Below the pieces are notes generated by a model, which saw only the letters and a list, made by a program, of their open reading frames with translations, was not told where the DNA came from and did no database searches. Positions 1,961 through 57,983 of a stretch of 64,000 nt of DNA are shown here, piece after piece. Numbering within the stretch: the first letter of the stretch is position 1; the number at the start of each line of letters is the position of its first letter. Source of the DNA: Heptranchias perlo (Eukaryota); NCBI RefSeq assembly GCF_035084215.1, contig NC_090335.1, positions 24,118,001 through 24,182,000 on the forward strand, given 5' to 3'. The position numbers and the translations under genes are program-made.

Positions 1961-2075
1961 TCACTTGGTATGAGTTCTGAAGGAAGGTCATCGACCTGAA
2001 AGGTTAATTCTGTTTCTCTCTTCACAGATGCCGCCAGCCCTGCTGAGTATTTCCAGCATTTTCTGTTTTTATTTA
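1961..2075 (+). mobile_element. Short PLE family-B pseudo-LTR insertion (hammerhead-only)
   Basis: TSD TGGTATAAGG at 1951-1960 and 2076-2085; homologous to the repeats at 33215-33393 and 42190-42626. Confidence 0.75.
1972..2010 (+). ncRNA. Degenerate minimal hammerhead ribozyme (family B)
   Basis: GAGTT-CTGAAGG-A-AGGTC-ATC-GACCT-GAAA-GGT-T-AATTC. Stems I and II pair, but core A9>G and the stem-III palindrome is broken. Confidence 0.55.
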
Positions 2076-3247
2076 TGGTATAAGGCTATAGTGGGTAGTC
2101 TTAGCTGTTGAGGTGTGCAAACTTCTTCTGCATTTGCTACCAGGTCCATTACATTGTGGAAACAGCTTTGACATGGTCTGACACCACCTCCCATGCATTC
2201 TCTAAGTTTCATCTATGTGGACGGTGCCTTGCAGTACCTAATGGGGCAATCCTCCTTTGCTGCACTTTTTCCAGCAGCATCCTTACAGGTGTATGGGCAA
2301 ATCAAGGAACTGATTGATGCCTCTGCTCCAAGTAGCCTATGATTTATAATGCGATCAAACTTTTATCCACCAATCTTTTTAAAATGCTTTTAAATCATTG
2401 CAGTGGCACCAGGTATTCCAGCTCAAGAACAGTGAGCTCCCAGTGACTGGCATGTTACACACTAGGAACTTGCTGCACATACATAATCAGGCCTGACCCC
2501 ACAAAAGTCGGAGGAGGTTAGTCACGCACTGAAAGGTACAAAGTCCGCTATGCAAAGTTCCCGTTCAATCTGTGAACATTGCAGAAAATCTGTGCTTTTC
2601 TGTGTAAGATGTTCCAACAATAATGTATTCAAGGCATGCTTGTTCTCATGTGTGGAGAAATTTCCATTGAGGCCAGCCCAAGTCACAGACAGTATTGTCT
2701 TTTTCCTTGTAAGCAGTTCATTTATTGAACTGTGGTGAAACTGGACCAGTCCAGGATGCAGGCCAGTTTGGGTTTATTGAGACCTCTGAATTTGATCATT
2801 TTTTTTTTACACACATCTTTCTTCTCCTATTTTCTTTCCACTCTGTTTCTTTCTGTAGTTTTAGTTAGGTTGGTAAAGATAGGTTCAGGCCTGCTCAGAG
2901 TCAGAGGTGGTGAAGATTGTATGAAATCTGAACGGTTTGAAATTGGACCAATTCAGATAAACTCAAAAAGATCTTAACTTTTGTCCATTTTGGATGGCGT
3001 GTCCATCAAATAAAAGTAGCATGGTCCCACGTGGACTTTGATACATTTTTATCACACACAGTGTGCAAAGGCACATTGGCAATACCACAGTGACAAATAT
3101 GCAAATATCCACCGTCTCTCTGTCAACTTCTTTTACTGGCAGCTAGAAGTGATTGTCAAATGCTCCAAGCTACCTTTAGTCCTCAATGACTTTTGTCAAT
3201 GACAATTTTTATGTCCATAATAGACAGGCAAAGCCAGTACTTATCTC

Positions 3248-3529
3248 AGGTATCAACCTTGGCTCAGTGGTAGCACTCTCACCTTTGAGTCTGATGGTTG
3301 TGGGTTCAAGTCCCATAATAGAGACTTGAGCACATAATCTAGGCTGATACCGAGGCAGTGCTGCAGGGTTGGAGGTGCCGTCTTTCAGATGAGACATTAA
3401 ACTGAGGCCCTGTCTGTCCTCTCAGGCGAACGTAAAAGATCCTGTTGCACTATTTGAAGAAAAGCAGGGGAGTTCTCCCTGGTGTCCTGGCCAATATTTA
3501 CCTCTCAACCAACATCACTAAAAAACAGA
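3248..3529 (+). mobile_element. Deu-domain SINE (SacSINE1-like), 5' part
   Basis: tRNA-like head with A box TGGCTCAGTGG and B box GGTTCAAGTCC, followed by Deu core (GGTGCCGTCTTTCAGATGAGACATTAAAC...GGCCAATATTT). Confidence 0.8.
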
Positions 3530-3785
3530 GCAGCAGCTATATGTAAACTAGCTGGAGCAATCTCTTATCTTTATCTTGACTGGATTCAAACTTGTCAACA
3601 AAGAATCTACCTAATCAGCTTCTTTTAATAGGTCAAAGTGCCTGTCTGCAAACTCTCATCTTTCTTGGTTCTGGGTTTAAATATGCTCTACTGACTCTGA
3701 CCCTCTCTAACTTGATATCAGGCATCTCAGGCTACCTCTAAAGCAGACCAAAAAAGTTAGATTTAAATACAAATAACAGAGAAAG

Positions 3786-4165
3786 AATCATAGAATGCTA
3801 CAGTACAGAAGCAGGCCATTTGGCCGATGAAGCATGTAATGGTGTTTCCCACCATATGAGCCTTCTTGTCTAATCCCATTTTCGAGCTCAATCCCCATTA
3901 CTATTATTCCTTTTCAAGCATCTACCTAATTCCCTTTTAAAAGAAATTATGGACTCTGTTTCTATAATGGTTTGCTCCAGCCACATTCTAACCATCCCCT
4001 GTGTAAAGTACAGTTTCCTAACCTGCCCTTTAATTCTTTTTGTTATTATCTTTAAACTTGTGCCCTCTCATTACATTTTGCCGACCAGTGGAAACAATCC
4101 ATCACTATTTACTACATCGTAACCTTTCATAATCTTGAAGACCACTATCAAGTCACCTCTTAACC
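3786..4165 (-). mobile_element. CR1 LINE 3' fragment
   Basis: Reverse complement of the CR1 ORF2 end and 3' UTR seen in other copies in the window. Confidence 0.75.
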
Positions 4166-4184
4166 TTTACAATTTCAATGAAAA

Positions 4185-4465
4185 CCTTAAAATTAGAGCG
4201 AGGCAGTTCAGGGGTGATGTCAGGAAGCACTTCTTCACACAAAGAGTAGTGGAAATCTGGAACTCTCTCCCCCCCAAAAAGCTGTTGAGGCTGGGGGTGA
4301 ATTGAAAATTTCAAAACTGAGATCGATAGATTTTTGTTAGGCAAGGGTATTAAGGGTTACGGAACCAAGGCGGGTAAATGGAGTTAAGATACAGATCAGC
4401 CATGATCTAATTAAATGGTGGAACAGGCTCGAGGGGCTGAATGGCCTACTCCTGTTCCTATGTAC
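4185..4465 (+). mobile_element. CR1 LINE 3' fragment
   Basis: RKHFFTQRVVEIWNSL motif; 3' UTR ...GGCCTACTCCTGTTCCTATG. Confidence 0.85.
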
Positions 4466-6694
4466 CTAAAAGAAAGTACAATGTGCAGCAAGTTACTGAA
4501 ACAGAACCAACTGTGTGCAGCTCTGGAGATGATGATATATATTTATTCTCAATACTAGAACAGTGCACCATCGATTCGATGATCAGCATTGAGCCCAGGG
4601 AACGCCTATTTCCCATGCACAAATGTCAGAAAAAAGGGGATACGCACCAATTACGCCAGGTCTTCGTTGCTTTTATATTGCCCTTGGATTTCTGGAGCTT
4701 GGCTTGAGGGGTGGAGTAGGGCCTATGCCTGCAATCCTGCACCTGCAATAGTTGCAGGCTTAGCACAACCGTGATACTGAGGTGGAAGATGGCATTTCCA
4801 GGCCTCCCACTCAATTTCCTGTGCTTGTAGCCTAGGGACACCCATTTCGAGTGGCACCTCAAGAAGCTAGTAGCGAACCTTGCACCTGGAATCTCCACGG
4901 ATCGGAGGGTCTGAGGAGGCCGGGAAGCAAGGCGGAGAAATGCTGGAGGTTAGGTGGCATTCTTTTATTTCCAGTACCATATGGATTTTTATGTCTGGAG
5001 GTCCTCTTGTTGCTGTTCTTCAACAGCAGCCAGAAGACCCTGAGACTAGCAGCCAGGTCTACAGCCGCCTTTCTGTTTCCTTTCCCATTTCCCGAAACAA
5101 GGCCCTGTTGATGGCTCAGCCTACTAAATTCTAGCATCGATCACTGGTTGCTGAAAGTCTAGACTTATGACGATTTGATAATCCTGCTGACTACATGTCA
5201 CAACATTGTTATGAATTGTAAAAGATCAACAATTAAGAATATTTTACTGTCTTAATATGGATATGAGGGGCATAGGTGAGTATTGCTTTTAATTGTAACT
5301 TGGAACCAAGGAAGTGGCTTGGAGTCTCAAAGGATGGACAATCTTTTAAAAATAATTGTGATCTGCCCGAATACACGGGAGCCTGAAGGGTAACCCCACG
5401 GGGTCAAGGCGGGGTGGGGGGGGGGACATGGTTTGTGGTGGTCCTGGGCAACTCTCCACAAAAAGGAGGCCAGGCATTGGATTTTCCAATTCCATGCAAC
5501 ATGTGCCTGAAGTGACACTTCCTGCACCCCCCCCACCCACCCGCTCCCCCCCCCACCCCGCCCCTGGCCTTCTGCAGATTAGCTACCCTCCCATTAACAC
5601 TGCAGGGTCAGTATTGGACAATGGGGATGTTTGGGGCTGAGCAACTTGTTTGGAGACCTAAATATAATTTTCAACATCAATATAACCTCAAAGTGAATAC
5701 GGAGTGGGAAAAAAAAACAAAATGCCACACAACTGAATCAACAGAGCAAAGTAACCCTCTGCTGCTGACTACAGTGGTTATCAGGTTACTGTGGAAACGG
5801 ATTATACCCAGGCCCAGAACTTACATTCAGGCTTTGTTGGTTTCTGTTAGACTAGCTGCAGTTTTACATTGACGAATGTTATGTGTTTCTAAATCTGGAA
5901 AACCTAATCTTCTTGAAACTATGTTCTCTGCAAAGCCTAATAATGGTAAACGTCCAAAGGTTATATTTTCCTTTTCTGTGTGGACAGTGCGAGGGGAAAG
6001 TATGGGAGAAAATTGTACTCGGAGACTCAGAGATGATTGTTTCTATGTTACTAATTTGTTTATGTGGTTACTTCTGTTTTCCCTTCAATTTAATCTCTTC
6101 ACACTTGGTTTGAGTTACCCGTTTATGCTACAAATATATTGTTAGTTAAAAAAAATTACAACACATTAAAGCAACACTTCAATTCTCTCACATAGTTATC
6201 AACAGTCTTTTTATTCACAGCTCAATCCTATAAGTAAAACAAATCTCTGCATGCTTTGAAATCAATGCTGTTCTGAGAATGAAGACTCTGAAGAATACAA
6301 TTGTGTATCTAGAGAATTATTTAATATTGCATGTTATAAATTGCACGTTGCTGATCAACCCAACAAGGTGTGGCATTTAAAAGATTGAGGAATTTTGGTC
6401 AGTGAATCATGTAGACCAGGAAGGTCGCCAATATAATTTTGTGATCTCTGTTGAGGCAATGATACGGATGCTACAATTAACCTCAGTACCCTTGCCATAG
6501 GGAGGGTAAAACTGGTCAGGGTTCTTGCTTCTAAACTATACGTTTGGAGATGTTGGTTGAGGACAGGATCAGTCTCAGTTCCACTCCCCCTGTTGACATT
6601 TATTATCAAGGCCCACACTGGAATAATACCCATGGGTGAGGTACCACTGGGTGGCTATGGATGATGAAAGTGCCCATTAGCAAAGAGTCAATGG

Positions 6695-9352
6695 GGTAGG
6701 GAAGGAAGAAGGGGGCGTGGGGTAGCTGTACTAATTAGGGACAACATAATGGCAATAGAAAAAAGGGACATAAGTAACATTAAAAAGAAACAGATTCTGA
6801 ATGGATTGAGACAAAGGATAAGAAGGGATCGATCATGTTAATAGGGGTATTCTACAGACCACCTAATAGTGGAAGGGAAGTGGAGGATGAAATATGTAGG
6901 CAAATCTATGAAATGAGTAAAGAACAATAATTATGGGAGATTTCAACAACCCCCAAATAAACTGGCAAGAAGACATAGGGAAAGGGGAAAAGGGAATGGA
7001 GTTTTTACAGTGTGTACAGGACTCCTTTGTTACCCAGTATGTGAGAAGCCCAACAAAAGAGGAATCACTGCTGGATCTAGTAATGGGAAATGAACCAGAG
7101 CAGATATAAGAAGTAAGTGTAGGGGAACATCTAGGCAATAGCGATCATAACATAATAAGGTTTAAAATAATGATTGAGAGAGACATAAGTAAGACAAAAA
7201 CCAAAGTAATAGATTGGAAAAAAGCTAATTTTGAGGGGATGGAAGTGGAACTAGGGAAGGTAAACTGGAAAAAAAATTGACAGAAAAAGAGATAGAACAG
7301 CAATAGGAAATATTTAAAACTCAATAGAGTTCAGGAGAAATATATTCCTCTAAAAAGCTAGAACAAACTAGCCAATGATGAAATACCAGGGATGAATAAA
7401 GAGATAAGGGTAAAATTGAAACTAAAGAAAAAAGCATGGACTAAGTACACAGACAATAAAAAGGGAATGACAAAAGGGAATATGAAGAGGTTAGGAAAGA
7501 AGTCAAAAAAACAATTAGGAAAGCCCAAAGGAACTACAAAATTAAATTATCAAGAAATAGTAAAGTATTCACAGACAAATAAATAACAAAAGAAAAATCA
7601 GGATAGGGATAGGGCCATTAAGGGATGCACAAGATAAACAAACAGGTAATGACAGCAAAATGGCAGAAATATTGAATAGTTACTTTGCCTCAGTATTTAC
7701 CAGGGAGACTAACAAGGTGGTAATGACATTAGAAGAAGAGATCAAAAAAAAAACATTTAAGATAGAAAGGGGGGAGATAAAACTTAGAGAGGATAAAATC
7801 CCTGGTCTGGATGGATTGCATCCGCGAATATAGCAGAGGCACTATTACATATATATGAAAAATCATTAGAGAAGGGAATAGTGCCAGAGGACTGACAGAC
7901 AGATAATGTTATTCCCATATTTAAAAAGGGAGATAGAACAAGTCCAGGGAACTATGGACCTAATAGCATAACGTCAGTGGTAGGAAGGATAATGGATTCT
8001 TTACTCAAAGATATAATAGAGAAACATCTAGAAAATGAAAATATAATAAAGAATAATCAACACGGATTTCAGAAGGGAAGGTCATGCTTGACCAACCTTA
8101 TTGAATTCTGTGAAGAAGTAACAGAAAGAGTAGACAAGGGTAATGTAGTAGATGTAATATACTTGGATTTTCAAAAGGCCTTCGATAAGGTGTCACATTG
8201 TAGACTCATGACTAAGGTCAGAGCATGTGGAGTCAGGGGACATGGAGCAGAATGGATAGCAAGTTGGCTACAAAACAGAAAACAGAGAGTGGGGTTAAGG
8301 TCAGCTGCTCATACTGGCAAAAGATGGGAAGTGGTGTTCCACAAGGATCGGTGCTGGGACCACTGTTGATCACAATTTACATTAATGATTTAGATTTGGG
8401 AATCGTAAGTACAATTTTAAAATTTGTGGACAACACCAAATTGGGTGGTGTAATTAATACAAAGAAAGAATGTGCCAAAATGTAAGAGGACGTTAATAAA
8501 CTTGAAGAATGGACGTGTAATTGGCAAATGAATTTCAACATAGGTAAGTGTGAAGTGGTGCGTTTTGGTAGGAAGAATAAGGAAGACACATACTGCTTGA
8601 ATAATAAGAGTCTGAATGGGGTAGAGGAGCAAAGGGATCTCAGGGTACAGATACACAAATCACTAAAAGTAGTGACGCAGGTTAATAAGACCATAAAAAA
8701 GGCAATCAAGCACTGGGGTGCATCTCTAGAGGGATAGAATTGAAAAGCAGAGAAGTTATGTTAAACTTGTGTGGAACATTGGTTAGACCACACTTGGAGT
8801 ACTGTCCACAGTTCTGGTCTCCATACTGTAGAAAGGATATAGAGGCATTGAAGAGGGTGAAAAAAAGATTCATAAGGATGATACCAGAACTGAGAGGATA
8901 TAGCTATCAGGAAAGGCTGAACAGGCTGGGGCTCTTTTGTCTAGAAAAGAGAAGGCTGAGGGATGACCTGATAGAGGCCTTTAAGATAATGAAAGGATTT
9001 GATAGGGTAGACGTAGAAAAAATGTTTCCACTTGTGAGGGAGTCGAAAACTAGAGGTCATAAATATAAAATAGTTGCTAATAAAGCCAATAGGGAATTCA
9101 GGAGAAATTTCTTTACCCAAATTGTGGTAAGAATGTTGAACTCGCTATCACAAGGAGTAGTTGAGGCAAATAGTATAGATAGATTAAAGGGGAAGCTAGA
9201 TAAGCACATGAGGGAGAAAGGAATAGAAGGATATGTTGATAGGGTTAGAAGAAGAGGGGTGGGAGAAGGCTCGTGTGGAGCATAAATGCTGGCATGGGCC
9301 AGTTGGGCCGAATGGCCTGTTTCTGTGCTGTGGACTCGATGTAACTTGATGT
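6695..9352 (+). mobile_element. CR1 LINE, 5'-truncated, disrupted ORF2 (APE endonuclease part + RT)
   Basis: IIMGDFN and LDLVM endonuclease motifs; QHGFQKGRSCLTNL, YLDFQKAFDKV, GVPQGSVLGP, RPHLEYC, RRNFFTQ; multiple frameshifts and stops. Confidence 0.95.
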
Positions 9353-11252: not shown

Positions 11253-11725
11253 TCTGCACTTTCATCTATGGAGGGCCCATACCAGGAGCCTCGCAAAATT
11301 TAACTGTACATTTTTCATATTTCTTTATGGCCGCTTGTATCTGGCCTGCATTGTGATTAGTTCAAATGGTTTCTGCATGGCTGGGAGCAGGCAGTGCAGA
11401 TGGAACACATATTATTTGGACCAGGTACTATGTAAATAGTGTAACTTTAGAGCTCCTTTGTTTCTATGATGTTTTTAATTACATTTGAGGACAACATGCA
11501 CGGCCACAGACAAGCTACGGAAGGCGATGCTTTCCTGCCTTACTGTTTGCCAGAGAGAAGAAGATCTTCAGCAAACAAGCTAGGCTGTTTGATGTGGGAA
11601 TTGAAACAGTTAAGGGGTCGAGGACTAATATGTAGTTATGATGTGGAGATGCCGGTGATGGATTGGGGTTGACAATTGTAAACAATTTTACAACACCAAG
11701 TTATAGTCCAGCAATTTTATTTTAA

Positions 11726-11766
11726 ATTCACAAGCTTTCGGAGATTTTCTCCTTCCTCAGGCAAAT
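11726..11766 (-). ncRNA. Minimal type-I hammerhead ribozyme (family A)
   Basis: Exact inverted copy of 13183-13223. Confidence 0.85.
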
Positions 11767-11879
11767 GTTTCAGGATCTCCTTGAAGCCTACGCATTTATA
11801 CATATTGAACAATACATGGTGTTTACAGACTGCCCCTGCAACTGCCCGTTGCCAAGGCAATCACCGTGTTCAGACAAAT

Positions 11880-12936
11880 TCACAACATCAACAAGTTCCA
11901 TCCCACCATCAAGCTCACCATGGACTACTCCTCAGAATCAGTTTCTTTCTTGGACACACGAATCTCCATCAAAGACGGGCACCTCAGCACCTCACTCTAC
12001 CGCAAGCCCACGGACAACCTCACGATGCCTCACTTTTCCAGCTTCCACCCTAACCACGTCAAAGAGGCCATCCCCTATGGACAGGCCCTGCGAATACACA
12101 GGGTCTGCTCAGACGAGGAGGAACGCGATGGACACCTACAGACGCTGAAAGACGCCCTAGTAAGAACGGGATATGACGCTCGACTCATCGATCGACAGTT
12201 CCGACGGGCCACAGCAAAAAATCGCATAGACCTCCTCAGGAGACTAACACGGGACGCAACCAACAGAGTACCCTTTGTCGTCCAGTACTTCCCCGGAGCG
12301 GAGAAACTACGCCATGTTCTCCGCAGCCTTCAACATGTCATCAATGAGGACAAACACCTCGCTATGGCCATCCCCACACCTCCACTACTCGCCTTTAAAC
12401 AGCCACCCAACCTCAAACAGACCATCGTTCGCAGCAAACTACCTAGCTTTCAAGAGAACAGCGTCCACGACGCCACACAACCCTGCCACGGTAACCTCTG
12501 CAAGACATGCCAGATCATCGACACAGATACCACCATCACACGAGATGACACCACCCACCAGGTGCATGGTTCATACTCCTGTGACTCGGCCAACGTTGTC
12601 TACCTCATACGTTGCAGGAAAGGATGCCCCAGAACATGGTACATTGGCGAGACCATGCAGACGCTGCGACAACGGATGAACGGACACCGCGCAACAATCG
12701 CCAAACAGGAGGGTTCCCTCCCAGTCGGGGAACACTTCAGCAGTCATGGACATTCATCCACCGACCTTCGGGTAAGCGTACTCCAAGGCGGCCTTCGAGA
12801 CACACGACAACGCAAAATCGTCGAGCAGAAATTGATAGCCAAGTTCCGCACCCATGAGGACGGCCTCAACCGGGATCTTGGGTTCATGTCACGCTACACG
12901 TTACCCCACCAGCGAACAAATGTTATCTGTTTTTAA
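11880..12936 (+). pseudogene. 5'-truncated PLE ORF: RT C-terminus/thumb, Cys linker, GIY-YIG endonuclease
   Basis: FHPTIKLT..SVSFLDTRI..SLYRKPTD (RT); CHGNLCKTC linker (Cys knuckle typical of the Neptune group); NVVYLIRC..WYIGET..RMNGH..EQKLI..GLNRD (GIY-YIG). Uninterrupted for ~350 codons. Confidence 0.92.
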
Positions 12937-13087
12937 TATAATGGGTCATTTGCTGGCTCTCTCTGCCTTCCGGATGTTTCTGCCTCTCTCTGTGTTTTTT
13001 TTTCTCTGTTTTTTTTCCCTGTTTGTTTTTTTGTTGAATGTGTCTTCGGGGGTTCTGCAGATGACACCTCTCTGTCTGAACACGGTG

Positions 13088-13154
13088 ATTGCCTTGGCAA
13101 CGGGCAGTTGCAGGGGCAGTCTGTAAACACCATGTATTGTTCAATATGTATAAA
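13088..13154 (+). promoter_or_regulatory. Putative PLE pseudo-LTR promoter (X-box-like, MYB-like, TATA)
   Basis: ATTGCCTTGGCAAC at 13088-13101, CAACGG/CAGTTG, TATAAA at 13149-13154; same motifs and spacing at 16058-16124. Confidence 0.5.
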
Positions 13155-13182
13155 TGCGTAGGCTTCAAGGAGATCCTGAAAC

Positions 13183-13223
13183 ATTTGCCTGAGGAAGGAG
13201 AAAATCTCCGAAAGCTTGTGAAT
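13183..13223 (+). ncRNA. Minimal type-I hammerhead ribozyme (family A)
   Basis: ATTTGC-CTGAGGA-A-GGAGA-AAA-TCTCC-GAAA-GCT-T-GTGAAT: CUGANGA/GAAA core, stem II, palindromic AGCU stem III, stem I with G-U pairs. Confidence 0.85.
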
Positions 13224-14455
13224 TTAAAATAAAATTGCTGGACTATAACTTGGTGTTGTAAAATTGTTTATAATATGTAGTTGTTCATCCTCTCCCTATC
13301 CATTGTTTAAAAATCTTTAAAAGCTGTGAGAAGGAGACATAGCTACCCAGTTGGGATGACTGACCCACGGTGAGGTGTGAATCTGTTGTAGAAGGCACTT
13401 CATCCAGGGTGTCCAATGCTGGTGTTGATTGACAGCTCCATGCTCAGAGTCTGCCCGACAGAAAAATAAACACTGGAATATTTTCTCAGTTTTGTTCCCC
13501 TTTCACTATCCTGCCATGGAGACGGCGATAAATGGAGGATTCTGTGGGGGTAATTTTGACTTTGTGCGATAGTGTAAAACGGGCGATACTGATTCAGCCT
13601 GTTAGACATCTTTCTCAATTTTAATTTCCATTGACTTCAACAAGGACACAAGATGTTTAAATTACTGCATAGCCCATTTCATCACACATCAGCAAAAAGT
13701 AAGATCCTCTTCAAAGTACGTTCCTTCAATGTGTTATTCCAGCCCTGATTCAAAAAATAGATTGTCATGTTGGTGATTGTTGTAAAAGAACATTCAACGT
13801 GCTGTATGTAGTATTTATTATTGAACTGACTAGATAACTTTGAATTATCTGATCTTTCAGAGCTCCTTTCAACATGTCAGAAAGAGAAAGAAAAAGAAAA
13901 CAATATTTATTATTTTAAAACAGACTTTCCAGAGTTAATGCACTATCTGCCTGGGAGTCAGTCTCATATATAAGAAACTTTATCCCTGTCATTCACAGTC
14001 AAGGGAACTTAATTATCCTTGAAATTTACAACTGAAATAACAGTGGTAAATACACAGTAGGCTTACAGTTGGCATTACTTATTCACTACACTCCCCTGTG
14101 TATGGTGAGAATGCACTTCAATACTTTTGACAGATAAAGTGACTGTGAGAAATGTTTGAGAAGCAGTGACCCCAGCCATCGGTTTTCATCATTAGTCCCT
14201 CTCATCCATCGCAATATAAATCAAGCTGTGCGGAGATTTATTTTAGCATCTGCCAGCAGATAATCTATGGATTGGCTCTGGTTATTCCAGGGCTCACGGA
14301 GCCGATAGAGCACAGCCATATCGTTTACCTGACGGCTGCAGTTTGTATGTCTTCATGGTTTTTTAATCTGTATGTTAGCTCAATCTTAAGAAACTACTGA
14401 ATAATCTTCACTTCTATATAGCTATCCAGATACTGGATCAAACCCAGAAAATCTA

Positions 14456-14830: not shown

Positions 14831-14950
14831 GGCCTCATCTGACACACTTAAACATCCACTCCCTCCACCACTGATGCACCGTGGCTGTGGTACTACATAG
14901 TTGTAAACAATTTTACAACACCAAGTTATAGTCCAGCAATTTTATTTTAA

Positions 14951-14991
14951 ATTCACAAGCTTTCGGAGGCTACCTCCTTCCTCAGGTGAAC
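14951..14991 (-). ncRNA. Minimal type-I hammerhead ribozyme (family A)
   Basis: Inverted copy of 16159-16199. Confidence 0.85.
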
Positions 14992-16057
14992 GATGTGGAA
15001 ATGAAGTCCTCGAAATGAAGTCGCATTTATAATTCACAGAACAATGCTGGTGATAACAGACAGTTTTTTCAACTGCCCGTTGCCAAGGCAATCAGTGTGC
15101 AGACAGACAGGTGTTACCTGCCAGGTCTCAGAATATACAAATCACCAAAAAAAACAACAAACAAAAAAAAACAGAGATAGAGAGGTAGAAACATAGAAAA
15201 GACAGCAACTGACCCGTTATATTAAAAACAGATAACATTTGTTCGCTGGTGGGGTAACGTGTAGCGTGACATGAACCCAAGATCCCGGTTGAGGCCGTCC
15301 TCATGGGTGCGGAACTTGGCTATCAATTTCTGCTCTACGATTTTGCGTTGTCGTGTGTCTCGAAGGCCGCCTTGGAGTACGCTTACCCGAAGGTCGGTGG
15401 CTGAATGTCCTTGACTGCTGAAGTGTTCCCCGACTGGGAGGGAACCCTCCTGTTTGGCGATTGTTGCGCGGTGTCCGTTCATCCGTTGTCGCAGTGTCTG
15501 CATGGTCTCGCCAATGTACCATGCTCTGGGGCATCCTTTCCTGCAACGTATGAGGTAGACAACGTTGGCCGAGTCACTCGGCCAATGTTGTCTACCTCAT
15601 ACGTTGCAGGAAAGGATGCCCCGGAGCATGGTACATTGGCGAGACCATGCAGACACTGCGACAACGGATGAACGGACACCGCGCAACAATCGCCAAACAG
15701 GAGGGTTCCCTCCCAGTCGGGGAACACTTCAGCAGTCAAGGACATTCAGCCACCGACCTTCGGGTAAGCGTACTCCAAGGCGGCCTTCGAGACACACGAC
15801 AACGCAAAATCGTAGAGCAGAAATTGATAGCCAAGTTCCGCACCCATGAGGACGGCCTCAACCGGGATCTTGGGTTCATGTCACGCTACACGTTACCCCA
15901 CCAGCGAACAAATGTTATCTGTTTTTAATATAACGGGTCAGTTGCTGTCTTTTCTATGTTTCTACCTCTCTATCTCTGTTTTTTTTTGTTTGTTGTTTTT
16001 TTTGGTGATTTGTATATTCTGAGACCTGGCAGGTAACACCTGTCTGTCTGCACACTG

Positions 16058-16152
16058 ATTGCCTTGGCAACGGGCAGTTGAAAAAACTGTCTGTTATCAC
16101 CAGCATTGTTCTGTGAATTATAAATGCGACTTCATTTCGAGGACTTCATTTC
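16058..16152 (+). promoter_or_regulatory. Putative PLE pseudo-LTR promoter with Inr
   Basis: X-box-like 16058-16071; TATAAA 16119-16124; Inr TCATTTC 16146-16152 with A+1 at 16148, 29 nt after the TATA start. Confidence 0.55.
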
Positions 16153-16158
16153 CACATC

Positions 16159-16199
16159 GTTCACCTGAGGAAGGAGGTAGCCTCCGAAAGCTTGTGAAT
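16159..16199 (+). ncRNA. Minimal type-I hammerhead ribozyme (family A)
   Basis: GTTCAC-CTGAGGA-A-GGAGG-TAG-CCTCC-GAAA-GCT-T-GTGAAT. Confidence 0.88.
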
Positions 16200-17024
16200 T
16201 TAAAATAAAATTGCTGGACTATAACTTGGTGTTGTAAAATTGTTTACAATTGTCAACCCCAGTCCATCACCGGCATCTCCACATCAGTACTACATAGTGT
16301 ATACTATCTACAGGATGCACTGCAGCAACTCACCAAGGCTTCTTTGGCAGCACCTCCCAAACCCATGACCTCCACCATCTAGAAGGACAAGGGCAGCAAG
16401 TGCATGGGAACACCATCACTTCCAAGTTCCTCTCCAAGTCACGCAACATCCCACCTTGGACATAAATAACCGTTCCTTCATCATCGCTGGGTCAATATCC
16501 TGGAACTCCTGAACTAACAGCATTGTGGGAGCAGCTTCACCACATGGACTGCAGCTGTTCAAGAAGAAGGCTCACCACCACCTTCTCAAGGGCAACTAGG
16601 ACTGGGCGAGAAATGCTGGCCTCGCCTGCAACGTCCACATCCCAAGAATGAATTTAAAAAAAACACAATTATCAGGAAGTGTTTCTGGTGAGGTCAACAC
16701 TAATGGCTTTGCAATTAAAAAGTATTCACATATCGAGGCCAAATAGTGTCAGTACAGCCATATGTGGCTATCTTGTCTGTAGCCCTGCCTTTTCTCACTA
16801 AACAGTTACTAGCTACACCTACTGAATGTGAATTGTATCTCACACAGGATTTGAATTGTGACAGGACACCAATGCATCACAGTAAGATGGCAATAGGCAG
16901 AATAGAGATTCAAGGGCCATGAATTTTGTGAAAGTACGCGTTAGAACAAGAAGAGGAAATAGACTAATGAGCATGCCCTTGCAGTTGTTCTAGTTTGTGA
17001 ATTTTAAAATGAATGTCAGTTCAT

Positions 17025-17563
17025 AGACTTGAAAAATTGGATCTTTTTTCATTAGAACAACGCAGATTATGAGGCAGTATGATAGAAGTGTTTAAAATTA
17101 GGAATGTAAGGAATCTTACAACACCAGGTTATAGTCCAACAGTTTTATTTGGTGTTGTAAGATTACTTACATTTGTCCACCCCAGTCCATCACCGGCATC
17201 TCCACATTAAAATTAGGAAAGGATGGGACAGGGTAGATAAAAGTAGACTGGTTTCAGTGGTTGAGGGATCAAGAGAAGGGCCCGTAGATACGAGATCAAA
17301 GGTAAGAGATTTAGAACAGAGATTAGGAGAAACATTTATGCAGAGAGTTGTGAGGCTATGGAATTCACTTCCAGGGTTAGTAGTTGAGGTAGAAACTAGG
17401 TCAACATCCGAGATTAGATTAGATAGGCGGATGAAGGAAAAGGGGTTGACGAGATACAGGAATAGGGTGGGTAAACGTGATTGGAACCATTTTATCACTT
17501 GAAGGGTAAACATACACGTGGACTGGTTGGGCCTGTTTCTGTGTTGTAACTTCTATGTATTTC
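17025..17563 (+). mobile_element. Old CR1 3' fragment interrupted by a mini-PLE
   Basis: IEVFKI | RKGWDRVDK..FMQRVVRLWNSLP continues across the insertion. Confidence 0.75.
17105..17206. mobile_element. 102-bp inverted PLE terminus insertion (family-A variant)
   Basis: TSD TTAAAATTAGGAA at 17092-17104 and 17207-17219; inverted TGTAAGGAATCTTACAACACCA / TGGTGTTGTAAGATTACTTACA plus tail CCCCAGTCCATCACCGGCATCTCCACA. Confidence 0.88.
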
Positions 17564-25288: not shown

Positions 25289-25386
25289 TTTCATTTTGTA
25301 TGCATTATTTAATGAGTGAATTGATAAATCTGGATTTGAATTTGCATTTGGTGGTGATTTTTATTTCTGCGGTGAACTGAGGACGA

Positions 25387-40902: not shown

Positions 40903-42189
40903 CTGGCAGGTGTTGGTGTGAGGGGTTGTGCAGGGTAGGTGGGTGGGTCCTCGGACTGGGGCTGCGGTTTCGTGTCGGTCTGTCCTCTGGCTTGGCGGGG
41001 GTTGGTGGAGGGCAGGGGTTGCCCTATGTGACGCGGTGGCCCCCTGCGTGGGTGAGGGCTCTCCCCCGTGGAGCGCACCTTGGCACCTGCCACAGGCTGC
41101 TGGCTGCAACACGCCTGGTTTGAAAGGTACTGTTTCCCCCAGTGTGGGAGACTGACTGCGTTGAACCTAAAATCCCACACTTTCTCTTTTGACAGCTGCT
41201 TCAGCTCATTAACTGACCACAACGAGCAAGTTAAGTGCTCTCAAGTGGAACCCCGCTGGCTTTAATTGCCTGCGGGATTCCCACCAGCGGGGCTTGCGCG
41301 CGCAGGCCCGCATGTCAGCGCGGTACCCGGAAGTGGCCGGGATTTCGTCCGAATCCGGTCACGTGACCGGAGATCGGGATTTTCGGGGCCCCCCCCGCTG
41401 GAAACCCGCAGGTAACCCGACCCTAAAATCGAGCCCCTGATTACAGGTAGAAAAGGCTTTTTTACTTCACACTGTCCTGGAGGATACACGTCATCAGGGA
41501 TTTATCTGGACTGCTCCAATCTTGTATGGAGGTGCTGAAAGCTAAGCATAAACCATGTCAGCCTGTATCACTGAGGGGTACCTACAGCAAACAATAAGAG
41601 GTCTATTCAACTTTTGCCATGCATGCTGTTGGAGCCTAGTGATGACTGGTGCTATATTTACTGTAATAATGCACCCATGTTGAGTGTGGATGCCCAAAGT
41701 AGGATAACTTGATGTGAGGCAGGAATCCAATATTCCCATGAGGAATTTTTTTTTCCTTAGGAAATCTGTTCTCAGTTTATGTGCTTAGCACACAGACTTC
41801 AGATAAAAATATTATAACAAGAAACATTATATTACAGGAACAGCAAAGGCCACCTACCTTGCTTCTAAATGCTGAATTATTCATAAAGGGGGTTTTAAAA
41901 AATTTTACTTATAAGGAAACTATTTTTGGAAAGTAAGTCTTTTGACTTACAAAGGCCGTCGGGAATGCCCCATTCAGGATTCTTCAGTAGCCTCTACGTC
42001 CGCCAATGACTGATAAATGTAAAATTAAAACAAAAACATCCTGTGAAGCCAGTTTGAGGAGGAGTGCTCCCCCGAACCCACAGGAGTCATGATTGCCACC
42101 CCTCCCCCCACCCCCCCCCTCCCTCACCCCCAGTAGCCCGCTCGGTTCTGGCACAGGTTAATTTCTTGGCCAATAGCGAAATTCATGGA

Positions 42190-42626
42190 CTAAAAACAGA
42201 AAATGCTGGAGAAGCTCAGCAAGTGAGGCAGCACCTGTGGAGAAAGAAACAGAGTTAACGTTTCAGGTTGAAGACCTTTCGTCAGAACTGGAAGATGTTA
42301 AAGAGTTAAAATGTTTAAGCAAGTACAGAGGCAGGGAAAGGGAGGGAGGGAGGGGTGGGGAGGAAAGAACAAAAGGGAAGGTCTGTGATAGGGTAGAGGG
42401 CATGAAAGATTAAAGGACAAAAGGGATGATGGTGCAAGTCAAGGAAGGTGGTAATGGGACAGGTTAAGAAATAAAAGATTGATCAGGAGTAGCTGTAAAT
42501 GGCCGCAGTGGAACCATTACCAGCATTAGCTAACCGAAAAAATGGGAGCAATGGTTATGATCTGAAGTTATTGAAATCAATGAAACCCTTATTTCAGATT
42601 TCCAGCATCCGCATTATTTTGCGTGT
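42190..42626 (-). mobile_element. PLE family-B 3' fragment with short inverted tail
   Basis: TSD GAAATTCATGGA at 42178-42189 and 42627-42638; minus arm starts TAAAAACAGAAAATGCTGG; plus arm TTATTTCAGATTTCCAGCATCCGCATTATTTTGC. Confidence 0.82.
42253..42289 (-). ncRNA. Minimal type-I hammerhead ribozyme (family B)
   Basis: AGTT-CTGACGA-A-AGGT-CTTCA-ACCT-GAAA-CGT-T-AACT. Confidence 0.78.
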
Positions 42627-43611
42627 GAAATTCATGGAGTAGCCTTATTCAGTTTATGTTACTCATCTGATGACAAGACATTTTTCCTTTTGATGCATGA
42701 TGAGGTTCATTAAAGGCATAATATTTTTTATGTAATCACTATAGTTTATCAAGAAATAATCAACAGCTGAGTATTGAGATGTAATAAGGTCAGTACTTCT
42801 TTAAAGTCCTTGGAGTAGATTTCGACTTTGTGCGATTGTGTAAAACGGTTGATAGTGAGTTGGTAGCCCGTTTTACATCTCTCCCGATTTTTATTTCCAT
42901 AGGCTTGACCGTTGCAGGCTATTCTGCAAGCTATTCAACAAAGGGCAACCTTGTAGCTGAAAGTGATCTTGTCCTCATCCAATAGCCACATATATGGATT
43001 TCTAGCAGGGGTCTCAGCATAGTGATCCCTCCCTAGCCCAGAGACTCAGAGCCCAATTCTAGCAACAGTAACTATGCCTTGTTTAAGATCAACTAATTCA
43101 GGACAGCCCCAAGATTGAACCTGATACCAATATTATAGAAATGTTGACATACAGCTCCCTACTTAGCAGCTGGATAACTCCACCGTCCGCTCCACCGGTC
43201 CAACCAGAGTGTGGTAACATGTTTTGACTATTTCCTTTCGACCACCTGTGATAATTTGCTCAAAAAAAAGGTTCTAGGTGTATCGTACAGGTAGGAAGCA
43301 AAATTCCATGATGCACATACTGATTAGAGGCATCCTGTAAAAACTACTTTGATTCCTCTTTGCTGTTCGGTTAAGATAGTCATCTCTCAGTTTGATTTGA
43401 TTGACATTACTTAAATACAACAGAATAGCAAAAAGATTTAAAAGATGTTATCAGACTCCATGATTTCAATACAAGCCTTTCAAGTTCACTTTTAGAAGTG
43501 TACCATGTGCTCTCCTGGTCTTACATCATTCACTGTCGAGTATCAACAGCTGTCAATTCCTCAGCTTGATGAGTTTAAAACCTACAATGAAGGGCACATT
43601 ATTAACATAAT

Positions 43612-47590: not shown

Positions 47591-47847
47591 TTGTTGTTAT
47601 TGTTCGATTCCAAGCCCTCTTTAAAAGTTAAAGCCAAATATTGTAGCATTCTTCCAAGGAAGCTCAGATGCCAGACCAATTGGAAATTCAGTAAAATGGC
47701 TAACGCAGACGAAATTTGTTGCCCTTTAACCTGGTCAAGGATTTAGACAATGGCCATGGTTGCTTGCAATGTGCGAGAGTCAACTCTAATTCCAATTTAC
47801 TCCATTTTGCAGTTCAGGAACTTTGAGTTCACAATGATTCTATTCAT

Positions 47848-49331
47848 GATACTCTTCCAAAGCTCTCTCGACTCAGGAACTGTTCCTTTAGATTGGAAAA
47901 TTGCACATGTCACTTCGTTATTTAAGAAAGGTGAAAGAGGGAATCCAGGGAATTATAAACCAGTTAGCCTAACATCTGTTGTCGGGAAATTATTAGAGTC
48001 TATAATTAAGGATAGGGTGACTGAACACCTTGAGAATTTTCAGTTGATCAGGGAGAGCCAGCATGGGTTTGTAAAGGGTAGGTTATGCCTGATGAACCTT
48101 ATTGAATTTTTTGAAGAGGTGACTAAAGTAGTGGACAAGGGAATGTCTATGGATGTTGTTTATATGAATTTCTAGAAGGCATTTGATAAAGTCCCTCATA
48201 AGAGACTTTTAGCTAAAGTTGAAGCTTATGGAATTGGGGGCAAATTATTGACCTGGTTAGGAAATTGGCTGAGTGGCAGGAGACAGAGAGTAGAGATAAT
48301 GGGCAGGTACTCAAATTGACAGGATGTGACTAGTGGTGTCCCACAGGGATCTCTATTGGGGCCTCAACTATTCACTGTATTTATTAACGATTTAGATGAC
48401 AGGATAGAGAGCCACATATCCAAGTTTGCTGATGATACAAAGATAGGTAGCATTGTAAGCAGTGTAGATGGAAACATAAAATTACGAAGAGATATTAATA
48501 GATTAAATGAATGGGCAAAACTGTGGCAAATGGATTTCAATGTAGGCAAGTGTGAGGTCATCCACTTTGGACCTAAAAATGATAGGCTAGAGTACTTTCT
48601 AAATGGTGAAAAGCTCGAAACAGTGGAGGTCCAACGAGACTTAGGGGTCCATGTACATAGATCATTAAAATGCCATGGACAGATGCAGAAAATAATCATA
48701 AAGGCTAATGGAATGCTGGCCTTTATATCTAGAGGACTGGAATACAAAGGAGTAGAAGTTATGCTGCAGCTATACAAAACCCTGGTTAGACTACATCTGG
48801 AGTACTGTGTTCAGTTCTGGGCACCGCACCTTAGGAAGGATATATTGACCTTGGAGGGAGTGCAGCGTTGGTTTACTAGAATGATACCTGGACTCCAAGG
48901 GTTAAATTACGAGGAGAGATTACACAAACTAGGGTTGTGTTCCCTGGAATTTAGAAGATTATGGGGTAATTTGATCAAAGTTTTTAAGATATTAAGGGGA
49001 ACTGATAGGGTAGACAGAGAAAAACTATTTCCACTGGTTGGGGAGTCTGGGACTAGGGGACATAGCCTAAAAATTAAAGCCAGGACTTTCAGGAAGTGAA
49101 GTTAGGAAACACTTCTACACACAAAGGGTGGTAGAAGTTTGGAACTCTCTTCCGCAAATAGCAGTTGATGCTAGCTCAATTGTTAATTTTAAATCTGAGA
49201 TTGATAGATTTTTGTTAACCAAAGGTATTAAGGTTATGGTGTGTATATGGAATTAGGTCACAGAGCAGCTATGATCTCATATAATGGTGGAACAGGCTCA
49301 AGGGGCTAAATGGCCTACTCCTGTTCCTATG
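47848..49331 (+). mobile_element. CR1 LINE 3' 1.5 kb (RT), with stops
   Basis: DWKIAHVT..NYKPVSLTS, GVPQGSLLGP, KFADDTK, HLEYCVQFW. Confidence 0.95.
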
Positions 49332-51199
49332 ATACTGTCCTAAAATAAAACATTAATGGGCAGAATATGGGTCTGTGAAATTTCAAGTTACTTGACCAAC
49401 TTATTTTGCTGAATTCCGTTTAATTTTGATGCCCCTCCCTACTCTAGGAAAAGTAATTTAAAATTTTATAATAAGAATGATGACTGTCTCATTTATTATT
49501 TAGCTTTCTAACGAGTAGCCTGATTTAACTGATAAAAGACAATGGATTCCTCTGTCCGTTTAAGTTTCTGTATGCAGTGCACTATTCCTGAGCGTGAGGA
49601 AGGCCCCTGCTAATGTTGTTGTTTAAAGGTGGCTGGTCAAAGATGTATGAGAGTGGTGCCTCTTTACAAGGCCAATGAGGCTAAGAGGGCAGAGCCAGGG
49701 GTGACGACTCCCTTCCCTAGGAGTTCCTTGGCACAAAAAGGACCCAGGGTAAGATTGGAGGGTATTACACAAGGGAGATGAGGCATACCCATCCTCCAGA
49801 AGGCAGCAAGTGGGCCCTACAAGTGGTGCAGGCCACAGATACAGCCTGGATCCCTGAAGGTAAGGTAATAATTTCTTTTTAAAAATCCTAGATTGACCCC
49901 CATACAAATGGCGCGTTGGTGGGGGTTCCCATGAGTTCTTCCGACTCAACCGGACATCGGATTTTCCAGCAGCATGGGGCAGGTAAGTGCCGGAGACGCG
50001 CCCGTGGTGGTGGGGATGCCCATTAGGCCAATGGAAATAAGATGCAAAATGTGGCAGGGACAGCGCGGGAGGGCACAGCGGGTGTGAATGTGGCATAACT
50101 TGGGACCACGGTCTGCGGATTTTCGGGGCCATTGAGTTTGCAAAAGCTTTGCTTAGAATTTTTGGTGAATCAGGAGACTGTGAGCTTGCAAAAGCTTAGT
50201 TAATAAAGTTCGCCATCTGATGGAGGGAAGGACTGATTTCCTTTTTAACATTGGACTGAGTATTTTGTTTAAGAGGAAAATTCAGGCTCTAACAACATAG
50301 TTTTGGTGCATAAAATTTTCCTTCAAGCAATCTACTTCGTAATGCAAATTAATTGTTTTTCTTCGTCTACACAATTAAAGACTTCATAGTTGACAGTTTC
50401 TACATATCAGGTATTGTTGGAGAGCTCGTTAGCAGAATTTTATCATCAAATAATGATGATGTCTGATTGCCAGCTGCTGCTGGTAGAAATACATGGGCAA
50501 CTAGTGTTAATATACAAGATCTTTATTAATTAGGAGACTGGGTAAGCTAAATTGCTAGGGATTAAACATGAAAGGAATTTCTCTGTGGTGAAAGTCACAC
50601 TATACTCTGGGAAAAAGCAAACTATAGAATGCACAGAGCTAGATTCCCATGCATATCACCAAGTTCTGGCTGGCATCTTGACATAATTTAATGACAAAGC
50701 AATAATGGCTGCCATTGGGTTTGCCTTTTCCTCACAGTTCTCTCCCCTCCTTCCTTTGAAGTCACAAAGGCAGGTGTTTCCAGGGTGGGTGCGGACTGGA
50801 GGGCAATGTGCGTGCACAGCCCTTGGGCAGCACTGGAGCGCCTGGATTTCCTGGAGGTGCCCATTTACATCGAGAGGGTGGAGGTGTGTAATTGGAGCAG
50901 GGCCACCCAGTTCGAGCACATGTTGCACCTTAAAAGTCTGAGGCTGATTTAAAGGGGCACAGAGCAAAAGGAGGCAGAACCAAGGCGGTGGAGGCACTAT
51001 TGAGTGACCACGAGATTCTTGCTAAGAACCTAAGTGACTGTTTTGGCAGCTTCTGATAGTTTTATAAAGGGCAAGAAAAAATTGAAACTGGATGATAGGC
51101 ATAAAATCCTTTCAAAGTATTAGTGACTGAAGTCTGGCCTGGAATGTAAGTGCTGTTTGTTGGTTTTAAAATTCGATCCCTTGATACTGCTCTTCTGCT

Positions 51200-55444: not shown

Positions 55445-55739
55445 CTGAGACTTGGATGAGCCATAACTTCCTCCAGCTCAGTGTCGATAAAACCGAAGCT
55501 GTCCCTTTGGCTTCTTCTGCGTCATAGGTTTGAATTCCATCAGTTCCCCTGGTTTCCATCTGAAGCTAAGCCCACAGATGCAAAGCCTCAGCATCCTGCA
55601 TGGCACTGGGCTCAATTTCCTTCTCCACATCCAATCTGTCACTAAAACCATCCCCAAATATTGTATTAAAATAAGTATTTATAATGCCTGAACAAAAGGA
55701 AAAATGATGCTCGCCTGATAGCTCAGGAATTTTATCCAG

Positions 55740-56000
55740 TGAGTAGCTGAACCATACAATCCAGAAACGCTTGTGTTGAGCTGACAGATCTCAGCCAACA
55801 CAGGAATAGGAGAGCTACAGTTGGCCCTCGGACAAGGCGGGGAGGGGAAATCAACAGAGTTCCTGTTCCCAATCGGTACCCTGCCATTCCTGCTGGAAGT
55901 GCACATGTGTGGATGCCGGGTGAAGATGGGTTGGCTGTGATGCTCCCATGGTTAAATAGCCTGCTGACACTCAACGTCAAAGCTCACAAATGAAGATTAG
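55740..56000 (+). mobile_element. Ancient SINE-like repeat (related pieces at ~42930-43130 and ~54100-54290 on -)
   Basis: Shared core GGAAATCA..GTTCCTG..CCTGCTGGAAGTGC..TGTGGATG..GGCTGTGATGC..AATAGCCTGCTGACACTCA. Confidence 0.55.
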
Positions 56001-57376
56001 TTGAGGTACTAGAAAGCAACTGGTGGGGAGTTAAAATCTACCCCAATGTTTTCAAGATGGAGGGGGCGAGGGACGGGAAAAAATAGCAGAAAAAGGAGAA
56101 AATTAAATTATAAAAAAGCGAAATGTAAGATCATATTCTCAGACTTTGTACATTGTGTCCCGGGCCTTTGATCATTCAAGCTGATAAAAGGAACAGATTT
56201 TTAAAAAAGAGAACAGATTGCCTCCCATTGTAATTCTTTAATTATTCTGTCAAGCAGTCCGTTCCTGCCAATGGTCTCCATTGTGATAAATAGCAGCCGG
56301 AATTCTGCATCTGCACTCAAGCCAAAATTAATCATCTGAAGCCTGGAAATAAATGGTCCTATTCAAATACTGCAAAAAAAGAGAGACTTTCATTTTACAT
56401 AACCAGAGCTTTTTAAATGGTTATGGGAACAGAACTGGTTTGAAGTCTCATTGGTTGTTTGGAGCCAATATACTATCCGCAGTGAGAAAGAATGCTAGTA
56501 GCCACAGTGCCCAAAATAAAAAAATCTGGCATGCAGCTTCCAGCAACTGTCCACAGTCTCTTTCTTGATGATTAATAACAAGCTGCTGCTCAGTATTCTC
56601 TCTGCTGTCAATTAAAAAGGGGAAAGAGAAACTGTGATGGAACGTTATAATCACTGTTCCTCAAAGCTTCTATCCACAGTAATTTTAAATGTAGTATAAC
56701 CATAGCAAAGATTCGGTCAACATCTTCCCAATTTGCCAAAAATCAGTGAGGATTTTTGGACACGAGAGCAAATAGGTTCATTTATTTATTTTCTTTCAGG
56801 TAATTTGATATGTACCTGGTGAAGCAAAGGCACCACATCAACTGGAAGAAATAGTTCAAATCCAGGGGGGCTCGAAGTGGATATTGACGACGGCAGATGT
56901 TGTAACTAATGAAACATGGCCATCAAATACCATATTCAGCAATCAGGTGGCATCACCTTTCAAGGTTTCCACAAGGAATCTAACCAGCATCAGAAGGTTT
57001 TGATGCTTTGATCCATGTAGACGCAGAATGGTCCCTTGCAGCACAAGATAGCAGCTTTGCTCTGGCATTTAGGTCCCAAGAAATCTCTGGCATTGCATGC
57101 TGCTTTAATTACTCCACAGCTCATGTTAATAGTTTCAGGTTCCACACAAAACTTCTTGATAAAGGCGAGAACCTGGTTCTCAATCATCTTGGCACTTCAA
57201 AGAATGTAGACAATGCTCTCTCTGCTGTTTGCTTTGCTATCTCTCCATGTTTATATGAGGCACCATATGATTGACAGTGAAATCACAGCCACACATTTTA
57301 GAGAATGCATATAATGGCCCTGGTTTACTGCCTATAATATAATGAAAGGAGTGAATTCCTAATCTCTTTTGATGTG

Positions 57377-57506
57377 CACACCACCTGAGGAAGGAGGAAG
57401 CCTCCGAAAGCTTGTGGGATTAAAAATAAAATTGTTGGACTATAACTTGGTGTTGTAAAATTGTTTACAATTGTCAACCCCAGTCCATCACCGGCATCTC
57501 CACATA
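57377..57506 (+). mobile_element. 130-bp hammerhead-only PLE family-A insertion (distal tail)
   Basis: TSD TTTTGATGTG at 57367-57376 and 57507-57516. Confidence 0.9.
57381..57417 (+). ncRNA. Minimal hammerhead ribozyme (family A)
   Basis: CCAC-CTGAGGA-A-GGAGG-AAG-CCTCC-GAAA-GCT-T-GTGG. Confidence 0.82.
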
Positions 57507-57885
57507 TTTTGATGTGGTGCAGTCTCAGATTGTGCTTCACGACACATACTGAGGGGATTTATTCTGTGGTGGATTTACGTGGAAATAGCACTGAAACTGT
57601 AAATGTAACTTTGACAAGGACCGGCTCAAATTTCCTTGGTATATCTTTGTTAAATGCTCTTGATGGATTCCAACACTATTAGCACCCTCGAAAGGGGTTC
57701 GGGGTGGGGGGTGGGGGGAGAGATAAAATCTAGTGATGCTGCGACAGCTGAAAGGTCCAAGACAGCCATTTTGTGTCTGTAACAATGTCAATCACTGCAA
57801 TGTCTAATGCTGATGCTTCTTCAGGGCACCGAGCCCACAAATTTAAGGGCTCTTCAGTTACGATGTCACTCTCTGTAATCTAGTG

Positions 57886-57983
57886 TAAACAATTTTACAA
57901 CACCAAGTTATAGTCCAACAATTTTATTTGAAATTCACAAGCTTTCGGAGGCTTCCTCCTTCCTCAGGTGAATGTTGTGGAAA
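57886..57983 (-). mobile_element. 98-bp hammerhead-only PLE family-A insertion (proximal end)
   Basis: TSD TCTGTAATCTAGTG at 57872-57885 and 57984-57997. Confidence 0.9.
57933..57973 (-). ncRNA. Minimal hammerhead ribozyme (family A)
   Basis: ATTCAC-CTGAGGA-A-GGAGG-AAG-CCTCC-GAAA-GCT-T-GTGAAT, with a perfect 6-bp stem I. Confidence 0.88.

Follow-up and report, generated by a model that had tools for sequence, protein, structure and literature searches.

The genome of Heptranchias perlo contains, on contig NC_090335.1 between positions 24,118,001 and 24,182,000, a stretch of 64,000 nucleotides (the window, referred to below in its own coordinates) in which a preliminary description made from the sequence had recognised nine minimal hammerhead ribozyme motifs. 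This locus raises the question of what such ribozymes do for the elements that carry them. The motifs are almost certainly minimal hammerheads in the terminal repeats (pseudo-long terminal repeats, pLTRs) of two families of Penelope-like retrotransposons (PLEs). Based on the ends of their genomic copies, we propose, with a probability of about 50%, that a promoter in the pLTR drives transcription, that reverse transcription is primed internally at two sites, that short stubs are copied from uncut RNA and that long copies are templated by a ribozyme-made circle.

Two families of Penelope-like elements

The origin from PLEs, as put forward in the preliminary description, was confirmed for both families. 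Family 1, recognised by an AGCU palindrome, is young and has an intact open reading frame (ORF) of 902 aa with a reverse transcriptase domain (RVT_1, E 3.3e-10) and a GIY-YIG endonuclease match (E 2e-4 for the C-terminal piece, just under the Pfam cut-off). Its hammerhead precedes the AUG of this ORF by about 95 nt, and the tandem units of its subfamily A measure 3,080-3,093 bp (about 3.08 kb). Family 2, with an ACGU palindrome, is older, and its pLTR follows remnants of a PLE ORF that are about 30% identical to the family 1 ORF. The linker between reverse transcriptase and endonuclease is of the CX4CxxC type in both families (family 1: CHGNLCKTC, at aa 753; family 2 remnant: CECRRCNTC). It thus falls within the CX2-5CxxC motif by which the Neptune clade is defined in PMC8557442; as the same linker also occurs in Nematis, it points to a Neptune/Nematis type of element. 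The features of endonuclease-containing (EN+) PLEs were all found: an ORF combining reverse transcriptase with a C-terminal GIY-YIG domain, tandem-derived pLTRs, and an inverted, 5'-truncated copy with a one-sided tail and a short target site duplication (TSD).

Copy ends at the predicted cut and upstream of it

All element positions are given relative to the predicted cut, with the first base after U17 as +1 and C3 at -29. Exact matches to +1..+32 amounted to 44,320 copies genome-wide, and in 109 of them neither -2 nor -1 was a T. This genome-wide count led us to reject an accumulation of copy ends at the cut site, as no spike was found: after correction for chance, about 0.5% of the copies ended there, compared to about 0.4% per position over -6..+9 (1,417 matches; the anchors of the two counts differ slightly). 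In a hand tally among 100 matches listed, 8 copies ended at +1, 23 at +4 and 16 at -6, the latter two positions being fold-backs at DNA palindromes.

Ends further upstream were tallied by hand on the first 100 matches listed for each group, all from contig C1 and with both arms of inverted pairs counted, using a leading-letter filter by which some truncated copies are lost. For subfamily B of family 1 (10,942 matches), 45 copies passed -60, 6 ended at -59..-49 and 49 ended at -48..-42 with a mode at -46. The corresponding numbers for subfamily A (12,158 matches) were 48 copies that continued, 36 that ended at -41..-36 with a mode at -39 (21 copies), and 16 that ended further up. Family 2 (9,260 matches) yielded 19 ends at -34..-31 and 6 at -51..-35; with the anchor placed at -36, no peak was visible in this family. 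A script tolerating mismatches, applied to the first 30 loci, assigned start-site ends to 17/30 copies of subfamily B and 9/30 of subfamily A.

Each of these peaks (-46, -39 and, in family 2, -33) lies 29-30 nt downstream of a TATA-like box, as TATAAA begins at -75 in subfamily B and at -69 in subfamily A, and family 2 has TTAAAAA at about -62. The peak shifts along with the box, and the edge of stem I stays at -35 in both subfamilies A and B. The peaks of subfamily B and family 2 fall on TCATTT and CCAGTT, respectively, which we take to be initiator-like sequences. Judged from these end positions, the short copies probably represent run-off of the reverse transcriptase at the start of uncut RNA. 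The motifs at 1972, 33313, 57381 and 57933, four of the nine in the window, belong to stubs of this start-site type. As a separate observation, a G that does not belong to the element precedes several family 2 stubs starting at -33 (the one at 1972, L127, and 3/5 listed matches that end at -33); it could be a copied cap, with too few cases for a firm statement.

Long copies and tandem units

The start of the ORF is contained in 670 copies, of which the first 100 listed gave 95 motif matches and, after removal of duplicates, of nine units of a tandem array (locus L366, see below) and of arms with little ORF downstream, 67 long arms. In this set, 1/52 arms ended at +1 and 1/44 within -36..-48, the latter being significantly fewer start-site stops than among the short copies analysed by script (Fisher p 7e-8 for subfamily B and 9e-4 for subfamily A). 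The other ends were scattered, 10 of them lying further upstream than -1058; the apparent ends at -216 and -618 mark where the references stop and are no real ends. The long copies pass both the start site and the cut, and are therefore not derived from promoter-initiated monomers. Together with the missing spike at the cut site, these counts bear out the earlier proposal that the templates were uncut or re-ligated.

Successive units within one insertion differed by 0.79 substitutions per 355 nt (19 subfamily-A pairs of the 31 pairs examined), compared to 4.04 between loci. Taken together, the long copies likely stem from an effectively endless template. The data suggest a circle as the simplest account of such a template, although read-through of several units can explain the long copies too. 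That this putative circle is covalently closed by the ribozyme itself is a more tentative proposal, to which we give slightly less than even credence.

Two-armed insertions

The 3' ends of the elements are bimodal, lying at +54..+60 (short) or +90..+96 (long) from the cut. In head-to-head pairs, one long end was combined with one short end in 65/66 cases, the exception being a mis-pairing of neighbouring insertions, and at least 8 nt were common to both outer ends in 63/66 pairs. Differences between the two arms at recurrent variant positions were found in 5/14 short pairs, all five of them with TSDs of 12-13 bp, and in 3/33 long pairs, of which two either result from mis-pairing or have no TSD. 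These results suggest that two RNAs can serve one insertion.

Proposed mechanism

In the model that we favour, the pLTR promoter would fire at -46, -39 or -33, and the PLE protein would cut both target strands about 12 bp apart. Reverse transcription would then be primed internally, once per start point and often on two RNAs. An uncut linear RNA would allow run-off at its 5' end after 90-140 nt, leaving a solo-hammerhead stub. In a minority of transcripts spanning a whole unit, two hammerheads may pair via the palindrome (AGCU or ACGU) and cleave slowly, probably with the help of protein, and ligation of the released unit would provide the circular template of full-length and tandem copies. 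The strictest form of this model, in which a dimeric complex primes both target ends at a pair of fixed start points that are complementary (sometimes on two RNAs), uncut transcripts give dead-end stubs and every full-length or tandem copy is rolled off a ribozyme-made circle, is possible, but we regard it as rather doubtful.

Conservation of the ribozyme structure

Pairing and covariation were assessed on 28 variants picked by hand from 111 distinct motif strings, the core being fixed by the search pattern. The structural conservation proposed earlier was supported by this set, with 91.2% of the cells paired and a covariation score of 0.509, compared to 0.190 after shuffling and no more than 0.120 in slid controls. 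Much of this signal is the single split between families 1 and 2; double changes within family 1 affect one pair of stem I and two pairs of stem II. The extra nucleotide after A9 was found in 28/28 variants and the palindromic 15.2-16.2 step, kept as GC or CG, in 27/28. The G10.1-C11.1 pair was present in 23/23 family 1 variants, and the family 2 variants had A-U (4) or G-U (1). In 250 arms, which were chosen by a downstream anchor and are thus biased by how the loci were found, recurrent variants occurred at N7, in the 5' strand of stem I (all wobble-compatible), in stem II and in the loop; the core positions, the extra A and U17 had none (no more than 3/250 each).

Alternative explanations

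Several observations weigh against the proposed life cycle. Cleavage, ligation, circles and transcription starts are predictions made from DNA copies; four runs of contigs, whose nature as RNA is doubtful, revealed no start, end or circle at locus L045 and were unsuited to do so. Mutants of the hammerhead of an Anolis PLE left insertion in vitro unaffected (PMC11167929), and Naiad PLEs thrive without canonical hammerheads (PMC8557442). The A10.1-U11.1 pair of family 2 replaces the G-C of the published consensus. Folding the intended double hammerhead gave -23.5 kcal/mol compared to 2 x -12.2 kcal/mol for two monomers, i.e. no gain in energy, and a stable double hammerhead is thus unsupported by monomer and dimer folding. 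Among the long arms, 11/58 ended at +20..-10, four of them upstream of the cut, which corresponds to 0.63% per nt compared to about 0.2% in the flanks (Poisson p 0.001); this excess makes a minority of cut, linear templates possible. In addition, discordant tandem pairs exist (14 substitutions in L355 and 13 in L384), and the peaks of the short ends coincide with runs of A or T, where microhomology could favour junctions.

There may also be no circles, an explanation that we consider a real though doubtful possibility. The long copies would then derive from linear transcripts, either multi-unit or read through from the host, or from repeated template jumps that link the 5' end of the RNA with the pLTR downstream, and the hammerhead would cut only RNA that does not serve as template, e.g. 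limiting transposition or processing the mRNA for translation. Linear read-through of several units can account for the long arms, tandem arrays of up to 3-4 units do exist, the start-site stubs require no cleavage, and the Anolis mutants agree with such a scheme. However, with the same promoter on every pLTR, many full-length copies should end at the upstream start, but only 1/44 did, and arrays would be expected to shorten in each cycle of purely linear copying.

It is rather improbable that the motif is kept mainly as a signal for RNA pairing or protein binding, with the palindrome joining two RNAs in a dimeric complex, by which both target ends are primed, and cleavage being incidental. 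Cleavage after U17 is probably slow. Both start points were used in 65/66 inverted insertions and different variants in 5/14 short pairs, the palindrome is kept as GC or CG, and the Anolis protein is a predicted dimer (PMC11167929), all of which such a signal would explain. It would not explain why the catalytic core is free of recurrent variants in the 250 arms, unlike N7, the stems and the loop; the 4-bp palindrome adds no predicted stabilisation, and one PLE hammerhead does cleave in the presence of protein (PMC11167929). Very improbable, finally, is an origin of the short-end pile-up from stalling of the reverse transcriptase or from microhomology at the edge of a structured motif, with no transcription start involved. 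The peaks do lie 0-11 nt upstream of stem I in runs of A or T, and many junctions are inversions using short homology. But the shift of 6-7 nt between the peaks of subfamilies A and B follows the TATA box with the fold unchanged, the same sequence stops 1/44 long arms, and non-inverted copies share the same end base.

Features of the window

All nine hammerhead motifs were found at the positions given in the preliminary description, and U17 falls exactly at 13217 and 16193, the two sites after which cuts had been predicted. A strict descriptor (CUGANGA, optional extra nucleotide, stem II of at least 4 bp, GAAA-NN-U-H) matched 8/9 motifs, whereas 50 Markov controls of the window averaged 0.02 matches and never had more than 1. 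The motif at 1972 failed the descriptor (CUGAAGGA, AGGU) and is degenerate, as had been stated; the other eight have the CUGANGA/GAAA core and stems I and II. Self-comparison and TSDs placed the nine motifs in seven insertions, to which an eighth stub without hammerhead is added. The nine are not independent because 11726/13183 and 14951/16159 are paired arms of single insertions (arm identities 99.5% and 99.6%, respectively, both with 12-bp TSDs). The features are as follows.

1973..2073, plus strand: short-ended family 2 stub that starts with AGTT at -33, the predicted start site, and has a degenerate hammerhead (U17 at 2005); TSD TGGTATAAGG
11638..13270, unstranded: head-to-head insertion of family 1, subfamily A; the minus arm has the long end, the plus arm the short end and a 5'-truncated ORF; TSD of 12 bp, TAATATGTAGTT
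11726..11766, minus strand: minimal hammerhead, subfamily A, U17 at 11732
11884..12936, plus strand: 3' part of the PLE ORF with reverse transcriptase thumb, CX4CxxC linker and GIY-YIG region
13149..13154, plus strand: TATAAA at -69 from the cut, putative promoter; subfamily A short copies end mostly at -39
13183..13223, plus strand: minimal hammerhead, subfamily A, U17 at 13217
14902..16286, unstranded: family 1 subfamily B, near-perfect 1349-bp palindrome with one-sided tail; 12-bp TSD GTACTACATAGT
14951..14991, minus strand: minimal hammerhead, subfamily B, U17 at 14957
16119..16151, plus strand: putative promoter with TATAAA at -75 and an initiator-like TCATTT whose A lies at -46 (16148); subfamily B short ends mostly at -46 to -44
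16159..16199, plus strand: minimal hammerhead, subfamily B, U17 at 16193
17105..17210, unstranded: family 1 head-to-head stub, too short for a hammerhead and absent from the preliminary description; TSD with AAAATTAGGAA
33214..33393, unstranded: family 2 head-to-head stub; minus-arm hammerhead (U17 at 33317), 5' end at about -31
42191..42628, unstranded: family 2 insertion; minus-arm hammerhead (U17 at 42257), long end on the opposite arm; TSD GAAATTCATGGA
57374..57506, plus strand: single-arm stub with a long end, from the CCAC/GTGG subfamily of family 1; U17 at 57413; TSD TTTTGATGTG
57885..57984, minus strand: family 1 single-arm stub from about -45 (U17 at 57939), short end; TSD TCTGTAATCTAGTG

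The stem covariation claimed for these motifs held in part. In stem II, the motif at 42253 reads AGGTC/AACCT with 4 bp instead of the quoted GACCT. In stem I, ATTTGC, GTTCAC and ATTCAC are one-sided wobble changes opposite an invariant GTGAAT and no double changes, while CCAC/GTGG is a genuine subfamily; a chance junction at 57381 was ruled out, as CCGC/GTGG recurs in locus L143. In the hammerhead at 33313, the 5' arm of stem I was lost at the inversion junction and 2 pairs remain. The extra A and U17 were present in 25/25 descriptor matches from 76 random 10-kb stretches, although the descriptor required neither; the extra A and the UU cleavage site are not special, however, since an extra nucleotide is general in PLE hammerheads and U17 occurs in many animals (PMC4209133). 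Both having been published for PLE hammerheads, the motif itself is of a known kind. Extrapolated to the 3.25-Gb genome, the 25 matches correspond to about 107,000 motifs (95% interval 69,000-158,000). An Rfam scan yielded no hammerhead family match and four sub-threshold miRNA hairpins, which is uninformative as the minimal form is poorly covered by Rfam.

The TSDs of the PLEs are 10-14 bp long and AT-rich, and new copies are often located in or next to older PLE ends or LINE fragments (L213-L232, L043, L044). A target preference for ACTACATA, hinted at by two TSDs of the window, was rejected because it was not seen in other TSDs. The cut site of family 2 (42234-42258 and 33294-33318 on the minus strand, 2004-2028 on the plus strand) is spanned by a branch-point-like TTAAC that is followed by a pyrimidine tract and CAG at about +22, and thus resembles a 3' splice site. 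Besides the PLEs, the window contains a PIF/Harbinger-type element at 37263-41394, which comprises a Myb/SANT ORF and a DDE_Tnp_4 transposase frame that is open over 502 aa from stop to stop, and a decayed second copy at 43925-45931. Reverse transcriptase fragments of LINEs lie at 7896-9344, 23428-24835, 25390-27124 (RVT_1 match at 25553-27124) and 47747-49349; we take them to be CR1-like.

Relation to known elements

For PLE minimal hammerheads, Cervera and de la Pena 2014 (PMC4209133) describe an extra nucleotide between 9 and 10.1 as a general feature, a palindromic stem III and weak cleavage as dimers, and propose a circle model; the alignment in their supplement has U17 in many animals, including a turtle motif with AGCU-U. 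The motifs of H. perlo share with these the CUGANGA core, the extra nucleotide between 9 and 10.1, the palindromic 15.2-16.2, the lack of a stem III loop, the frequent U17, the thousands of solo copies and the division into sequence families. In contrast, stem II is shorter here (5 bp), family 2 has A10.1-U11.1 where the consensus is G-C in more than 80%, and the roughly 10^5 motifs exceed the 4,000-9,000 reported for coelacanth and Xenopus. The word 'shark' was not found in the supplement file of PMC4209133 that was searched, and nothing on position 17 was found in PMC6155905.

In the Poseidon element of Anolis carolinensis (Frangieh et al. 2024, PMC11167929), reverse transcription is initiated internally at two sites, both target strands are cut, the hammerhead is protein-assisted and unprocessed RNA serves as the predominant substrate. 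The elements described here are similar with regard to the two fixed start points that set the tail, the cutting of both strands, the position of the hammerhead near the ORF start and the uncut main template, but differ in the hammerhead being about 95 nt upstream of the AUG rather than overlapping the ORF start, and in the CX4CxxC linker of the Neptune/Nematis type. A term search of PMC11167929 returned nothing on where transcription starts or on templates that are circular.

A tail at one end, inverted pLTRs and TATA plus initiator-like motifs have been described for EN+ PLEs (PMC8557442, PMC3846280, PMC2377424, PMC6765202), and the function of the hammerhead is called unclear in PMC8557442. 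Our insertions resemble the inverted-pLTR insertions of PMC3846280 and PMC8557442 in their head-to-head arms, the 30-40-bp tail at one end and the short TSDs, and their TATA and initiator-like motifs are as in Adineta Pen2a (PMC3846280, PMC8557442). What differs is that the rule of one long and one short end is quantified here (65/66), and that some pairs are made of two variants; for the latter, double priming is a better fit than the proposal of PMC3846280, in which an antisense template allows self-priming.

Non-LTR retrozymes represent non-autonomous hammerhead repeats derived from PLE pLTRs (bioRxiv 10.64898/2026.07.22.740005). The window motifs were rejected as such elements, as the copies are dispersed or head-to-head and do not form at least two consecutive short hammerhead units. 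Elsewhere in the genome, locus L366 (contig C2, 21271500-21279500; locus positions 1356-5183) carries a 404-bp tandem array of ten hammerheads from family 1 with a 12-bp TSD, which resembles non-LTR retrozymes and appears to be retrozyme-like. Its unit is a -184..+220 deletion unit whose junction was found only there (9 copies). Units 8 and 9 share one substitution, and expansion at the DNA level is as possible as rolling-circle copying.

Significance

The motif and its two shared features were already known; new here are the cut-site count, the control by which the end peak tracks the TATA box, the contrast with long arms and the two-variant pairs. Our literature search, the coverage of which was incomplete, retrieved no report of start-site run-off or of the long-copy contrast. 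Such counting is possible since a young family provides 44,320 exact copies of one 32-mer, and the counts reject the simplest models, namely a template ending at the cut and full-length copies from promoter-initiated monomers. The proposed model makes predictions that are precise to the base: transcription should start at -46, -39 and -33, the circle should measure 3.08 kb and be closed at the cut, and each insertion should involve two priming events, one at +55 and one at +94. The counts also explain the abundance of solo hammerheads in such genomes and, if the strictest form of the model is true, they would represent the first genome-scale in vivo evidence for a role of PLE hammerheads.

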